The translations under genes were made by a program, and so were the position numbers. The notes under the pieces were generated by a model. The model worked only from the letters and a program-made list of their open reading frames with translations, had not been told where the DNA came from and ran no database searches. A stretch of DNA of 27,433 nucleotides. It comes from a virus (Duplodnaviria > Heunggongvirae > Uroviricota > Caudoviricetes). This document shows positions 20,927 to 27,433 of this stretch, in pieces (within the stretch, counting starts at the first letter, position 1; each line of letters opens with the position of its first letter). Location of the stretch: the IMG/VR virus record IMGVR_UViG_3300029042_000255, one strand, 5' to 3'.

Positions 20927-21312
20927 GGCTGGTATCCCGTCACGCGCTGCCACTCCTGCGAGAAGATGACGGAAAGGCGGTTAAATTCAGTGGTGTATTC
21001 ACTCAGCGAGGCACACCCGCCAGCGGTACGATGCGCCAGCATTGCCGCAAATACGGAGGCCGGGGAGTTGTAATACGCCAGCAGGGAGTCGCCGTGTGGT
21101 GTCAGGGTGTACAGGGCCAGACCTTGTGGCGTGAAAGCTACGCGGTAACAGTCGTCCACGGTGAAATAAAGGGTGTCTGCGTTCTCCGGTTTTGTGGTGC
21201 GTGCCCGGCTGGCGCGGGCACGGAGATAAAAATCAAACATTGCCTGAAGTTTTGGGGCCAGACGGGTGTCCTGTGTGCGCACCCATTTTACGAAGTCGTG
21301 ACGGTCAATCAT
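20923..21312 (-). CDS. hypothetical protein, 129 aa
   Basis: ATG with AAGAGA SD; stop overlaps the gpA-like start. Confidence 0.5.
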   Translation of the reverse strand: MIDRHDFVKWVRTQDTRLAPKLQAMFDFYLRARASRARTTKPENADTLYFTVDDCYRVAFTPQGLALYTLTPHGDSLLAYYNSPASVFAAMLAHRTAGGCASLSEYTTEFNRLSVIFSQEWQRVTGYQP

Positions 21313-21384
21313 GCTGCAATTCTCTTTACTACAGATGTGCGAAGGCCTCCCGCCGCAAGGTGCAGGAAAGGCCCGGAACAGGAA

Positions 21385-21615
21385 TTAATGGAGTTTGTTT
21401 TGCTGCTGGATGAGATCCTGAAGAGACAGGAGGTCTTCCGCCAGATAGCTGAATACAGCGGCGCAGTAGTCGGCTGAAATAGTGCTGTTGAGTCTGTGCA
21501 ATGTGTTGGATTGCATGATAAAGGCGATGTGTGCAGCGCGGGTGAGTCTGCGATCGATTTCAGTCTGGATGTGACGACGCTCCGCGATAGCGCGGTGCTG
21601 TTTGCGGTTTGCCAT
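21385..21615 (-). CDS. hypothetical small basic protein, 76 aa (possible DNA-binding)
   Basis: ATG at 21615 with AAGAGG SD 7 nt upstream. Basic N-terminus (RKQHRAIAERRHIQTEIDRR). First ORF after a long non-coding region. Confidence 0.45.
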   Translation of the reverse strand: MANRKQHRAIAERRHIQTEIDRRLTRAAHIAFIMQSNTLHRLNSTISADYCAAVFSYLAEDLLSLQDLIQQQNKLH

Positions 21616-21794
21616 GGTGTGGCCTCTTTGCTAGTAAGTTTTGAAAACTCACCATCCAGAGCTGCGAAACTGTGGGTGGCGAGACGTACGAGGTTCGCAG
21701 TACCGGCTAGCAAAGAACCCGGCCCGACCGAAGTCGGCCCCGTACGCCCCGCCATAATTCGTGTGCGAAAAAGACGTGGCAATACAGTACGCAC

Positions 21795-21815
21795 AAAAAA
21801 ACCGCTGGCGCGGTT
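21795..21815 (-). terminator. intrinsic terminator for minus-strand transcription (stem AACCGC-GCCA-GCGGTT followed by T8)
   Basis: Plus strand reads AAAAAAAACCGCTGGCGCGGTT; on the minus strand the stem is followed by the U-tract. Confidence 0.6.
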
Positions 21816-21952
21816 GTGCGCTTTGCTAGTCAGCAGGCTGCGAAACCCGGCACCCGTTTTATGAGGTGCAGCGGAAATGTAACCTGACTGATTGCGGCAT
21901 GGCAAGCGGTTTTTTTGTGAGAACGGCATGCTAAAAAAATCCTGATACTGCT

Positions 21953-21983: not shown

Positions 21984-22814
21984 TTACTTCACCGGAACAA
22001 ACGGAACAGCGGTATTGCTGGTCATGTATTGCGGTAGCGTGCCGTTCCATTTGTTGATTGCTTCCAGCTCCATAACGCCGGGATTCTGGCGCAGAGCTTC
22101 ACCGCGTAAACGAATGGCGTCGGCTTCAGCCTGGGCTTTTGTGCGAATGGCATCAGCCTGTCCGGCAGCTTCTGCGCGCAGCATGTTGGCTTCTGCTTCG
22201 CGTTGCTTGACTTCCTGTTCGCGTTGCAGGGTTTTCTGGTTTGCCGTGACTTTGGCGTTAATGCTGTCGATAACGGTTGGCGGATATTCCGGTTTACCGA
22301 CATAAGAGAGGCTCATGACCTGAATGCCGATGGGGGTCATCTCTTCTTGAATATCTTTAAGTGCTGAATCCAGCAGTTCAGACTTACCACCGTCGATAAA
22401 CTTATCGGTGGTCATTTTGCTGGCCAGTCGGTTGAGTGCATCGGCGATCTTCTGGCGCAGGTCAGTGTCGGTAATGTCATCCACGCCTTTGCGGTAGGTC
22501 TGAAACACTGTGGTAACTTTGGATGGATCAACCTTGTAGGCCACACCGATGTGATAGCCGATGGTTGTGCCGTCACTCATCTGAAAGCTGAACGGCTCAT
22601 CGTAGGTCTTCATTTGTTTGAAGGTCGGGAAGATGTAAACCTCGGTATTCCAGCCTGTCCAGTAGCGGCCAACGCCAACCACTTCACCGACGCCTTTATC
22701 GTCGCCCAGTTTGTTGACTTTGATGCCCACATTACCTGGTTCAACGCGATCGCAACCAACCAGCAGGATGGCGGCAAAAAGCGGGATAATCTGAAAGAGT
22801 TTGAATTTCTTCAT
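21984..22814 (-). CDS. SPFH/band-7 (HflC/stomatin-like) lipoprotein
   Basis: 276 aa. N-terminal signal peptide with lipobox (FAAILLVGC). C-terminal coiled-coil rich in RAEAAGQADAIRTKAQAEADAIR, typical of HflK/C-type SPFH proteins. ATG overlaps the upstream stop (ATGA). Confidence 0.6.
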   Translation of the reverse strand: MKKFKLFQIIPLFAAILLVGCDRVEPGNVGIKVNKLGDDKGVGEVVGVGRYWTGWNTEVYIFPTFKQMKTYDEPFSFQMSDGTTIGYHIGVAYKVDPSKVTTVFQTYRKGVDDITDTDLRQKIADALNRLASKMTTDKFIDGGKSELLDSALKDIQEEMTPIGIQVMSLSYVGKPEYPPTVIDSINAKVTANQKTLQREQEVKQREAEANMLRAEAAGQADAIRTKAQAEADAIRLRGEALRQNPGVMELEAINKWNGTLPQYMTSNTAVPFVPVK

Positions 22815-25344: not shown

Positions 25345-25632
25345 TCAAAGACCCAGCCAGAGCAACCATGCGTCGCGGCGTTCTTTCGGCTGATCAAAAA
25401 ACGCTTTGCGCATACCTGCGTTAAATGCTGGCAGATATACCCAGTTTTCTGATGCTCGCGTCTTCACTGAACCTGGTTTCACGAAGTCAATCGTTGGTAA
25501 CTTTGCAGCGTCAATCATGGTTCTGACGGTTGATTCTTTGCGACCAATCATCTTGGCAAATAGTTGATATGGCACCGCTTCAAGTGGATATGGTGCTACC
25601 TGAATGAACCCCTCAAGCTCTGATTTGCTCAT
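25345..25632 (-). CDS. cox: Cox-type excisionase / lytic-switch regulator (P2 Cox family)
   Basis: 95 aa. VPYQLFAKMIGRKESTVRTMIDAAKLPTIDF and ENWVYLPAFNAGMRKAF...RDAWLLWLGL closely parallel P2 Cox. AAGGAG SD. First gene of the leftward early operon. Confidence 0.8.
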   Translation of the reverse strand: MSKSELEGFIQVAPYPLEAVPYQLFAKMIGRKESTVRTMIDAAKLPTIDFVKPGSVKTRASENWVYLPAFNAGMRKAFFDQPKERRDAWLLWLGL

Positions 25633-25660
25633 TGTGGTAATCTCCTTAATTCGTCCAAAT

Positions 25661-25700
25661 GGCCCAAAATGGCTTATATAGGCTTATTTTGGCTATTTGA
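25661..25700. promoter_or_regulatory. four tandem 10-bp-phased direct repeats (ggcccaaaat / ggcttatata / ggcttatttt / ggctatttga) in the cox-C intergenic switch region; candidate operator half-sites
   Basis: Read directly; two inner repeats share GGCTTAT, spacing is exactly 10 bp. Lies within the 112-bp gap between the divergent cox and repressor starts. Confidence 0.55.
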
Positions 25701-25744
25701 GTTGTTCTTGCATTTCTCAATTTAGAAAGGAGTATATTTCTCAC

Positions 25745-26332
25745 ATGAGAAACGTGTCAATAGACTATTCGCAAAGACTCATGAGAATGAGGGAGGCGGA
25801 AGAGTTAAGCAGACGTCAATTCTCTGATATTACAGGGATTCCACTTAATACTATTCAGAAATATGAAACAGGTCATCAGCCTGCTAGAGCAGAGTTGGTT
25901 GAGCGAGTTTTACAGGTTGATAGGTTCAAAAAATACGCGCTTTGGCTTATGACGGGGCAAGTGTCTCCAGATAATGGGCAAATTGAACCCACGCCATTGG
26001 CTGGTAGTGGATCTGAAGTGGTATCTGAGCTTGGAGAAAAACTCCGCCTGATTCGAGAGGCAGAGGGATTGTCGCGTAGAGCGATGGAAGAGGTGACAGG
26101 GGTATCTCAAAACAATCTCAAAAATTATGAAATATTGGGAAGAATGATACCTGGAGAAACGCTACTCCTGATTTTGAATCATCCCCGTTTTCGGAAGTAT
26201 TCGGATTGGGTAATGTTTAATCAAACTAATGCTGCGACGGGGCAGATTGCTCCGCCTCTCTCTCTTGATGGCTTCTCCAGTTTGGAGGGCGATCAGAGTT
26301 CAACCGAAACAAAACAAAAATTACCCCGCTGA
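25745..26332 (+). CDS. immunity repressor, P2 C-type, internally duplicated (two HTH units in one polypeptide)
   Basis: About 196 aa from ATG at 25745 (track start 25697 is TTG; SD AAAGGAG is 12 nt upstream, so the start is uncertain). Two homologous halves, each ending in a P2 C-like motif: (i) DRFKKYALWLMTGQVSPDNGQIEPTPLAG, (ii) PRFRKYSDWVMFNQTNAATGQIAPPLSLDG. Located upstream of int and divergent from cox. Confidence 0.7.
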   Translation: MRNVSIDYSQRLMRMREAEELSRRQFSDITGIPLNTIQKYETGHQPARAELVERVLQVDRFKKYALWLMTGQVSPDNGQIEPTPLAGSGSEVVSELGEKLRLIREAEGLSRRAMEEVTGVSQNNLKNYEILGRMIPGETLLLILNHPRFRKYSDWVMFNQTNAATGQIAPPLSLDGFSSLEGDQSSTETKQKLPR

Positions 26333-26428
26333 GGCCAGAAAACTGGTTAGACCTGCTTTTTGTCTGGTCTGATTATTGCTGGAAAGAGGCTGGAGAAATT
26401 GTAGAGCGGTTCATTGGAGGGCTTCGCA

Positions 26429-27433
26429 ATGTCGATTAAGAAGCTCGAAGATGGTCGTTATTTGCTGGACATCAGGCCGAACGGACGCAAGGGAAAGCGC
26501 GTGCGTAAGGTATTTGACAAAAAATCGGTAGCGGTGGCCACTGAACGCTACATCATGGCGAACGCTGAAAAGCGGGAATATATACAGGGCTACCGTGATC
26601 GTCGAACGCTAAATGATTTGCTTGAGTTGTGGTGGATGTATCACGGCCAGCACAGGCGTAAGGCGGAAGAAGACCGAAAACAACTGCGCAACATAATCAA
26701 TGAGCTTGGCGCTGATATGCAGGCTGTGGATCTTGATAAGCTGAAAATTATCGCGTGGCGTTCTCAAAAGATAGCTGATGGATTGAAACCGTCATCTGCT
26801 AACAGATACATGAATCGGTTATCCGGAATGTTTACCGTACTGAAGAAAATAGGCCTCTGGGATGCAGAGCATCCGGTAAGGGGGATTTCTATTCTTTATG
26901 TATCCCCACGAGAGATGGCTTTCCTGTCCCAGAAGGAAGTAGCGCTATTGCTCGATACACTGGAGGGCGACTACTGGCGTGTTGCGCTTTTGTGTTTAAG
27001 CACAGGGGCGCGCTGGAGTGAAGCTTGTAAGCTTCGTGGTGAACAGATAGTTCATAACCGTGTAACGTTTCTTGAAACCAAAAATGGCCGGAAGAGAACG
27101 GTGCCAATTTCGCAGGCGGTTTGTGAGGCGATCAGAACCAGAGAAACAGGGAGCTTGTTTGAGGTGAAGTACCGGGAATTCTGTCTGGCGCTGAAAAGAG
27201 TTAAGCCCGATTTGCCAAAAGGCCAGGCTGCACACGTGCTTCGGCATACGTTCGCCAGCCATTTTGTGATGAACGGAGGAAACATTATTGCGCTTCAGAA
27301 GATTCTTGGCCACGCAACCATTCAGCAAACAATGGCATATGCACATTTTGCACCGGATTACCTGCAGGATGCGGTGGCCCTTAATCCGCTGAAAGGAGGC
27401 GTAAGTGTCCACGCAGTGTCCACGGGGGATTAA
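26429..27433 (+). CDS. int: tyrosine integrase (P2/186 integrase family)
   Basis: 334 aa from ATG with GGAGGG SD. Strong similarity to phage 186/P2 Int throughout (MSIKKLEDGRYLLDIRP...; GARWSEA; HNRVTFLETKN...RTVPIS; HVLRHTFASHFVMNGGNIIALQKILGH; YAHFAPDYLQDA). Stop codon is the last three bases of the window. Confidence 0.9.
   Translation: MSIKKLEDGRYLLDIRPNGRKGKRVRKVFDKKSVAVATERYIMANAEKREYIQGYRDRRTLNDLLELWWMYHGQHRRKAEEDRKQLRNIINELGADMQAVDLDKLKIIAWRSQKIADGLKPSSANRYMNRLSGMFTVLKKIGLWDAEHPVRGISILYVSPREMAFLSQKEVALLLDTLEGDYWRVALLCLSTGARWSEACKLRGEQIVHNRVTFLETKNGRKRTVPISQAVCEAIRTRETGSLFEVKYREFCLALKRVKPDLPKGQAAHVLRHTFASHFVMNGGNIIALQKILGHATIQQTMAYAHFAPDYLQDAVALNPLKGGVSVHAVSTGD

Follow-up and report, generated by a model that had tools for sequence, protein, structure and literature searches.

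What does a temperate phage gain from an immunity repressor that carries two complete DNA-binding domains in a single chain? The question is raised by IMG/VR virus record IMGVR_UViG_3300029042_000255, a 27,433-nt stretch of Caudoviricetes DNA that was analyzed as a whole and is called the window here. Its immunity-repressor gene C, at 25745-26332 on the + strand, has 195 codons and a stop and encodes two helix-turn-helix (HTH) domains of the HTH_3/HTH_31 type, each related to the C repressor of phage P2. An earlier reading, made from the sequence alone, had taken the gene for a tandem duplication of a P2-type C gene whose product works as a covalently fused single-chain dimer. As judged from comparison with its relatives, the gene is instead an in-frame fusion of two heteroimmune C repressors and not an in-situ duplication. 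The reading that we favor, and to which we give close to an even chance, is that the fusion unites repressors of different immunity groups of Xuanwuvirus-like P2-type phages, with the first module providing self-repression and the second module immunity in trans.

Two C-type domains in one reading frame

The open reading frame (ORF) is as first described, and all four peptide segments quoted in the sequence-only reading are present in the translation. Pfam assigns residues 12-57 and 95-145 to the two HTH_3/HTH_31 domains; taken alone, either half scores above the curated cut-off. The two halves align with 36% identity over 86 residues (E = 1e-16). Half 1 matches P2 C (PDB 2L49/2XCJ) with E = 2e-18 and half 2 matches it at 40% identity with E = 1e-19, so the homology of the halves to one another and to P2 C (E about 1e-18 to 1e-19) stands as proposed. 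Both halves carry the P2 C-family segment F-KY-LW-M ... GQI-P, in the forms FKKYALWLM...GQIEP and FRKYSDWVM...GQIAP; this C-terminal segment has been reported as strictly conserved in the family (PMC2995052). The transcriptional regulator family phrog_147 matches the protein in two stretches (E 1e-50), while NCBIfam holds no specific model for it, all matches falling far below cut-off. At 195 aa and with two domains, the repressor lies outside the size range of the P2 C family, whose members are single-domain proteins of about 99-110 aa that work as homodimers.

Domain 1 (residues 1-86; 25745-26002, + strand) is of the type found in Escherichia phage Chuche and contains the recognition helix LNTIQKYET (residues 34-42; 25844-25870, + strand), which is identical in the nearest stand-alone repressors. 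A linker (residues 87-95; 26003-26029, + strand), marked by a low predicted local distance difference test (pLDDT) score and by variable positions, leads to domain 2 (residues 96-172; 26030-26260, + strand), which is of the type found in Citrobacter phage Shae_phiSM and has the recognition helix QNNLKNYEI (residues 122-130; 26108-26134, + strand). The linker stands in the place of the C-terminal tail of stand-alone domain 1-type repressors. The chain ends in a disordered C-terminal tail (residues 173-195), which together with the stop codon occupies 26261-26332 (+ strand).

The start codon at 25745 agrees with the N-terminus MRNVSIDYS, which is kept in stand-alone relatives, and with a properly placed ribosome-binding site, AAAGGAG (25726-25732, + strand), read from the sequence and conserved in domain 1-type loci. 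RefSeq puts the start of the repressor of E. coli BCE049 at the same position, giving a 195-aa product that is named only 'helix-turn-helix domain-containing protein'. The sequence-only reading had raised the prospect of a later start, at 25778/25784, that would leave the first HTH untranslated. The in-frame ATGs in fact lie at 25781/25787 (M13 and M15), and HTH 1 (residues 21-42) would be translated even from these. For a second type of fusion, in E. coli AR_0085 (L032 1046-1633), RefSeq starts the protein at an internal ATG to give 183 aa; there, the MRNVSIDYS start, the ribosome-binding site and the operator overlap indicate 195 aa, so that start annotation is inconsistent within the family.

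The repressor is no assembly artefact, since it recurs on hundreds of contigs and its domain junction is found in 9 complete E. coli genomes. There are 193 contigs with the identical sequence and 416 with a variant 97% identical to it; a form at 84% identity occurs in Citrobacter.

Each domain has its own stand-alone counterpart

The closest deposited phages are Shae_phiSM and Chuche, both Xuanwuvirus-like, in which the flanks are 89-96% identical to those of the window and the span between them is 264 bp shorter. Their C genes encode single-domain proteins, of 106 aa in Shae_phiSM and 107 aa in Chuche. In a three-way DNA alignment, Shae_phiSM does not differ from the window as far as 25699, continues with a short 5' region of its own and rejoins the window at about codon 96 (LGEKL...); its C protein corresponds to domain 2 plus the tail. 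What Chuche has in common with the window is the 5' region, the ribosome-binding site and domain 1 as far as codon ~57. The identity of domain 2 to Shae C is 97%, and that of domain 1 to stand-alone proteins (P0028, P0030 and Chuche) with the same recognition helix is 74%, whereas domain 1 and domain 2 are 35% identical to one another. We describe the gene as a fusion and not a duplication because each domain has a stand-alone relative that resembles it far more than the partner domain does. Halves that are only 35-36% identical do not sustain the proposed tandem duplication, while the accompanying suggestion of a distinct immunity specificity holds, the N-terminal domain representing an immunity type other than that of P2. 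Both the two-domain architecture and the fusion origin are solid.

The same relationship was seen elsewhere. In P0022, P0024, P0025, P0034, P0054, P0055, P0058 and P0059 the domains are likewise closer to stand-alone repressors than to their partners. The exceptions are P0085, with repeat units 67% identical, which looks like a true internal duplication, and P0032, in which domain 1 is closest to its own partner (53%). The modules also occur in other combinations, as P0024 (L005 and L032; 7 complete E. coli genomes) joins a window-type domain 1 to a quite different domain 2 with the stand-alone relative P0070, and P0025 (L003) joins a different domain 1 to a window-type domain 2. These reshuffled fusions all lie between cox and int.

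A tblastn search of deposited phage genomes gave matches in 134 records, and the fusion was not found among the 40 best of these, in which the subject span was at most 321 nt, equal to one domain. A two-domain C repressor is not described in the searchable literature on P2-like C repressors, tandem HTH prophage repressors and Xuanwuvirus, the coverage of which is incomplete, and a 2011 survey of P2-like regulatory regions makes no mention of one.

C-type genes also stand side by side as separate genes. Two adjacent separate C genes were present in 3 of 42 species-level loci; unfused adjacent pairs lie upstream of int at 1507-2115 of L036 (Dryocola sp.), 1510-2266 of L042 (Pragia fontium) and 1432-1982 of L051 (Pseudomonas sp. 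SJZ074), where the two genes overlap by ATGA. A distant P2-like prophage (L008 2193-3538; Logan ERR7449210_47) has four C-type domains in a row before int, divided among three genes, for products of 89 aa, 174 aa (P0034, with two domains) and 108 aa. Of these, only the 89-aa product has an HTH that Pfam confirms. The gene ahead of the row is weakly Cox-like, with a Pfam match (E 0.003) below cut-off. Longer natural arrays of CI/C-like HTH units exist outside P2-like phages: P0083, P0091, P0144, P0095 and P0065 contain 3 to 11 tandem XRE-type HTH units, in proteins of up to 2,787 aa, with units that end in a W-L-x-x-G-E-G-like motif.

Both domains are under purifying selection

Both domains of the fused repressor are under purifying selection. 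In a comparison of the window with the tandem lineage of L027, the ratio of nonsynonymous to synonymous substitution rates (dN/dS) was 0.13 in domain 1 and 0.08 in domain 2, with dS values of 0.45-0.64. For the linker, where substitutions are very few (4-6 nonsynonymous, 1 synonymous), the ratio was 1.4-2.2; for the tail, again with few substitutions, it was 0.81. Variable positions among 21 tandem variants make up 5 of 10 in the linker and 18 of 23 in the tail. The recognition-helix segment of domain 2 (residues 121-129) is invariant in 21 full-length variants, and this helix is also nearly unchanged in domain 2 of P0025, which is 73% identical overall.

The disordered tail (LSLDG...EGDQ-ST-T-QK-PR; 26261-26329) is common to C genes of different HTH types that adjoin this type of integrase. 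It is near-neutral at the protein level and seems to travel with int and not with the DNA-binding domain.

Predicted operators accompany domain 1

The repressor gene occupies the position of a P2-like immunity repressor, as the sequence-only reading had it. On one side, across a 112-bp intergenic region, lies the divergent cox (25345-25632, - strand), which encodes a Cox-family repressor/excisionase and comes first among the early operon's genes (Pfam Phage_Cox, E 1e-22). Downstream of C (25745-26332, + strand) in the lysogenic operon is int (26429-27433, + strand), for a tyrosine integrase of 334 aa that is supported by its ORF and by the RefSeq annotation of the BCE049 prophage. The corresponding layout of the switch in P2 has been described (PMC3936717).

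The sole promoter-like site in 25500-26450, a strong one of the sigma-70 type, is the predicted early promoter Pe (25731-25760, - strand), which consists of TTGACA (25760-25755), an 18-nt spacer and TATACT (25736-25731) and points into cox. It agrees with the consensus at 11 of 12 positions, and an identical site is present in Chuche. No + strand consensus promoter upstream of C scored above the scan threshold, and Pc was not located.

Two predicted operators, with the common form TTTCT-N6-AGAAA, lie on either side of the Pe -10 element. O_L (25713-25728) is the inverted repeat TTTCTCAATTTAGAAA, just downstream of the -10, and overlaps the ribosome-binding site of C; O_R (25737-25752) is the perfect inverted repeat TTTCTCACATGAGAAA (TTTCTCA-CA-TGAGAAA), situated in the Pe spacer and overlapping the C start codon. 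Both fall within two 22-nt direct repeats (25712-25733 and 25736-25757) that are 24 bp apart. The motif occurs only twice in the window, a count that was reached in 0 of 100 shuffles. In P2, the two C operator sites also span the -10 of Pe (PMC2995052); a pair of repeated sites around either the -10 or the -35 of Pe is typical of the P2 C family.

A pair of YTTCT-N6-AGAAR sites, 24-25 bp apart, was present in every locus in which the C gene has a domain 1-type start, that is in single-domain Chuche, L033 and L035 and in the fusions of the window, L009, L010, L027, L032 and L005, and it was present in no compared locus of another C type. In L034, where the recognition helix is slightly different, both sites are changed symmetrically to CTTCT-N6-AGAAG. 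By this covariation, the predicted operators travel with domain 1, whether it is stand-alone or fused.

The operator had been sought at first in the repeats at 25661-25700. Four direct repeats with a 10-bp period and the core [T/A]GGC (at 25660, 25670, 25680 and 25690) occupy 25657-25699; Shae_phiSM has them unchanged and Chuche almost unchanged, despite the different C types. Because they are conserved along with cox irrespective of C type and have the P2-like spacing of 10-11 bp, we read them as probable Cox boxes at Pc rather than C operators. The Cox boxes of P2, spaced 10-11 bp apart, overlap Pc (PMC3936717). The BCE049 prophage has similar GGC repeats immediately past the stop codon of int (L031 21838-21866), where Cox sites of the attP arm would be expected, and these are probably Cox boxes at the att arm.

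Structure prediction and dimer interfaces

AlphaFold predicts two five-helix domains with pLDDT of about 90, a linker (residues 86-93) below 50 and a tail at 28-40. Superposition of one of these domains on 2XCJ chain A gave a template modeling (TM) score of 0.81 and a root-mean-square deviation of 1.4 Å (Foldseek). The predicted TM score (pTM) of the whole chain was 0.44 at full length and 0.48 for the tail-trimmed protein (residues 1-172), on alignments of only 7-8 sequences. An alignment that mixed single-domain and tandem proteins, in which MAFFT split the single-domain sequences over both halves, was not used for structure prediction.

We placed the published interface residues of P2 C (PMC2995052) on both domains. 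At these positions, domain 2 is residue for residue the same as Shae C, and domain 1 agrees with its stand-alone type and stays unchanged between two different partner domains. P2 C forms a symmetric dimer, one per repeat, and two such dimers bind cooperatively (PMC2995052). The half-sites of the predicted operators have both arms alike in both sites (TTTCT / AGAAA) and are not matched to two different recognition helices. Because the operators are symmetric and are the same with a stand-alone or a fused domain 1, each site would need two copies of domain 1 and therefore two chains.

Sites of the domain 2 type

Stand-alone domain 2-type loci (L001, L011, L019 and the diverged L029) have two sites of 16 bp each, one GGATTACATGTAATCC-like and the other AGATCACATATGATCC, that are 31 bp apart, the second of them overlapping the C start codon; no other type of C locus showed this pair. 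With up to 3 mismatches allowed, this Shae-type operator was not found in the 27.4-kb window or in the tandem loci L003, L004, L005, L009, L010, L027 and L032, nor was it found in the switch region of the 40.8-kb L031. The search returned one or two chance-level matches elsewhere. For Pe of Shae_phiSM, a hand-picked candidate, TTGATT-18-TAAACT, lies below the threshold of the scanner, which found nothing there, and is a guess only.

Of 5,426 complete E. coli genomes, 68 have a Shae-type C and 9 the fusion junction. The Shae-type phages share the integrase and would presumably use the same attachment site.

A proposal of dual immunity and its alternatives

In the reading that we favor, module 1 (residues 1-86) would be the phage's own repressor, having arrived as a block together with Pe and the two symmetric 16-bp operators. 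An intermolecular dimer of two domain 1 copies would occupy each operator, two dimers in all as for P2 C, and would turn off cox together with the lytic operon. Module 2 (residues 96-172) would be the almost unchanged repressor of the Shae_phiSM group, which has the same type of integrase and is commoner in E. coli. It would pair with module 2 of a second chain and act in trans on the operators of incoming or co-resident Shae-type phages. We assign this target to domain 2 because the domain is conserved and virtually identical to Shae C and no site for it was found in the scanned part of its own genome. One polypeptide would then make the lysogen immune to two phage groups, and the advantage would be one-sided, as the fusion phage's own operators would not be recognized by Shae C. 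We infer both the homotypic pairing of the domains and the trans-immunity through domain 2, and we place the dual-immunity function of the fused repressor somewhat below an even chance. The unfused stacking of C modules fits the same idea. A wider proposal, that P2-like prophages broaden superinfection immunity by stacking repressor modules of rival groups, separate or fused, and that the 195-aa protein is bispecific, is put forward more tentatively.

Several points weigh against dual immunity. The operators are deduced from position, repetition and covariation only, and the conservation of their arms could be due in part to the overlapping ribosome-binding site and first C codons. The scan for domain 2 operators covered the prophage except for roughly 8-10 kb, by our estimate. 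An intramolecular contact between domain 1 and domain 2 is possible, as the linker of roughly 10 residues may be long enough, and the same linker is so short that the formation of both homotypic dimers together is in question. Another way to read the unfused neighboring C pairs is as partners in a heterodimer. Finally, the low dN/dS of domain 2 could have built up in stand-alone genes and then been imported by recombination.

The alternative closest to the sequence-only reading is a single-chain pseudo-dimer, in which domains 1 and 2 would pack like P2 C subunits and one chain per operator would read an asymmetric site. The symmetric P2 C dimer must read non-palindromic DNA, a problem to which an asymmetric covalent dimer is an attractive solution, and Ile5 and residues 73-74 of P2 C are in the dimer interface, which a linker of about 10 residues might reach (PMC2995052). 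The distant relative P0085, with its 67%-identical repeat units, also speaks for this model by its resemblance to a true internal duplication. Against this, the predicted operators are symmetric and do not differ between phages in which domain 1 stands alone and fusions with either of two second domains, and the recognition helices differ at most positions (LNTIQKYET vs QNNLKNYEI). Nor are the interface residues co-adapted, each domain having those of its own stand-alone type and domain 2 the interface of free Shae C, and AlphaFold gives no confident packing between the domains (pTM 0.44/0.48, on shallow alignments) though both are confidently predicted. Operators, interfaces and the AlphaFold model together argue against a single-chain dimer, which we consider distinctly unlikely. 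Domain 2 could instead be a dimerization or cooperativity module that links the chains at O_L and O_R or stabilizes the domain 1 dimer, with its DNA binding irrelevant. The C-terminal domains of lambda CI and 186 CI, which raise avidity, offer an analogy. Such a role would suit the intact homodimer interface of domain 2, the lack of a cognate operator in cis and the purifying selection on the whole domain, and P2-type repression does need the cooperative binding of two dimers (PMC2995052). Oligomerization would have no need, however, of the invariance of segment 121-129 in 21 variants or of a helix 3 that is the best-conserved stretch of domain 2 in P0025; moreover, phages with a stand-alone domain 1-type C, Chuche among them, do without domain 2, and stacked C genes occur unfused too. 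We judge such a module, which all observations but the conserved recognition helix would allow, unlikely to be the explanation.

The fusion might also be a functionless by-product of unequal recombination between heteroimmune prophages with the same cox and int flanks, with domain 2 an undecayed passenger. This is highly improbable given that the fusion is intact on hundreds of contigs and, at 84% identity, in a Citrobacter lineage; in the Citrobacter comparison domain 2 has a dS of 0.64 and a dN/dS of 0.08 while the linker and tail drift, and several other module combinations keep both domains intact. It does draw on flanks that are 96% identical between immunity types, which would make recombination easy, and on a domain 2 that is only about 3% diverged from free Shae C. 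A last alternative, that the fusion shields the repressor from antirepressors, supposes that a tethered second domain, possibly insensitive to epsilon, holds the dimers together when an antirepressor is made by an invading phage or satellite. It starts from the isrK and C4 RNAs and an epsilon-like ORF at 21385-21869 (- strand), and from the T67I substitution that makes P2 C insensitive to P4 epsilon (PMC2995052), the equivalent residues being T70 in domain 1 and F158 in domain 2 in our numbering. This evidence is circumstantial, as the Pfam match of the 76-aa ORF in question is below the curated cut-off and the cassette is present also in relatives with a single-domain C, and we regard the shield as the remotest of these accounts.

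Neighboring genes and prophage context

The same prophage in E. coli BCE049 adjoins pdxB (RefSeq). In the window, Rfam identified a full-length C4 antisense RNA at 21672-21759 (82.8 bits) and isrK at 21795-21869 (65.5 bits), both on the - strand. Directly downstream of C4/isrK is the 76-aa ORF (21385-21615, - strand), which matches phrog_3688 and, weakly and below cut-off, the Pfam family 'Derepression protein'; its BCE049 homologue is named 'derepression protein' in RefSeq. The layout of these three elements resembles P1 immI (c4-icd-ant) or P4 (CI RNA ... epsilon), as an RNA-controlled antirepressor cassette, and the C4/isrK cassette is common to P88, Shae_phiSM and other Xuanwuviruses. A 206-aa candidate ORF (21309-21929, - strand) runs in another frame across both RNA genes and the 76-aa ORF; its Pfam match, to the Ash family, is weak, and it also matches PHROG regulators (E about 1e-15, residues 13-114).

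Also in the early operon, 21984-22814 (- strand) encodes a 276-aa SPFH/Band 7 (HflK/C-like) protein (Pfam E 6e-31; phrog_200, 'lipoprotein'). The BCE049 prophage, otherwise a match, lacks this gene and has different cargo in its place, so that the gene looks like mosaic cargo. In RefSeq, the genes of the BCE049 prophage at L031 10708-13300 include a toxin-antitoxin pair of the Phd/Doc kind, a segregation pair of the ParM type and one for a ClpX-type zinc-finger protein. Such plasmid-style functions for maintenance are not usual in a phage that integrates.

Implications

The immunity groups of temperate phages are usually seen as one repressor matched to one set of operators. If they truly confer dual immunity, the recurring heteroimmune fusions would represent a simple recombinational route by which a phage acquires the immunity of a rival while its own switch is unchanged. 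Isolated phages of both parental immunity types exist in Chuche and Shae_phiSM, which makes for a clean and cheap experimental system. The fused repressor, if bispecific, would also be a natural template for bispecific HTH repressors, and the symmetric operators bear on the old puzzle of how symmetric C dimers read repeated sites. Should domain 2 be only a cooperativity module or a passenger, the protein would be an unusual but modest variant of domain architecture.

Comparison with known systems

The nearest well-studied system is P2 C (99 aa; PDB 2XCJ and 2L49), with its heteroimmune relatives in WPhi and P2 Hy dis. The window protein resembles it in the fold of both domains (TM 0.81), in the KY-LW-M...GQIAP segment, in its place as first gene of the Pc operon, upstream of int and facing cox, and in the two repeated sites that flank the Pe -10. 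It differs in having two complete C domains with different recognition helices in one chain, and in predicted operators that are symmetric inverted repeats, present twice with 24-bp spacing, whereas those of P2 are non-palindromic 8-bp direct repeats. Of the two Xuanwuvirus-like relatives, both with cox and int flanks about 89-96% identical to those of the window, Shae_phiSM has a C protein (106 aa) to which domain 2 is 97% identical, and Chuche C (107 aa) has the same recognition helix, Pe and operators as domain 1. Each of these phages has one domain with its cognate operator, while the window phage has both domains and the operators of the first only.

Engineered single-chain repressors, such as linked 434 repressor DNA-binding domains, single-chain Cro and Arc, also join two HTH domains head to tail through a short linker, the design being that a single chain occupies the two half-sites of an operator. 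In the window, the evidence points instead to like-with-like pairing and two separate specificities. The 186 CI repressor (about 192 aa), of the other repressor type known from P2-like phages, is similar in length and occupies the same switch position in a P2-like phage; it combines an N-terminal HTH with a C-terminal oligomerization domain, whereas the second half of the window protein is another C-type HTH. 186 CI is reported to lack sequence similarity to C (PMC2995052), and the 186 CI-type family is absent from the Pfam and NCBIfam matches of the repressor. A mycobacteriophage immunity repressor has been described as a monomer in which two unlike domains read a single asymmetric site (PMC9283540). 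It is similar to the window protein in placing two domains in one immunity-repressor chain, and differs from it in not being a fusion of two complete heteroimmune repressors.

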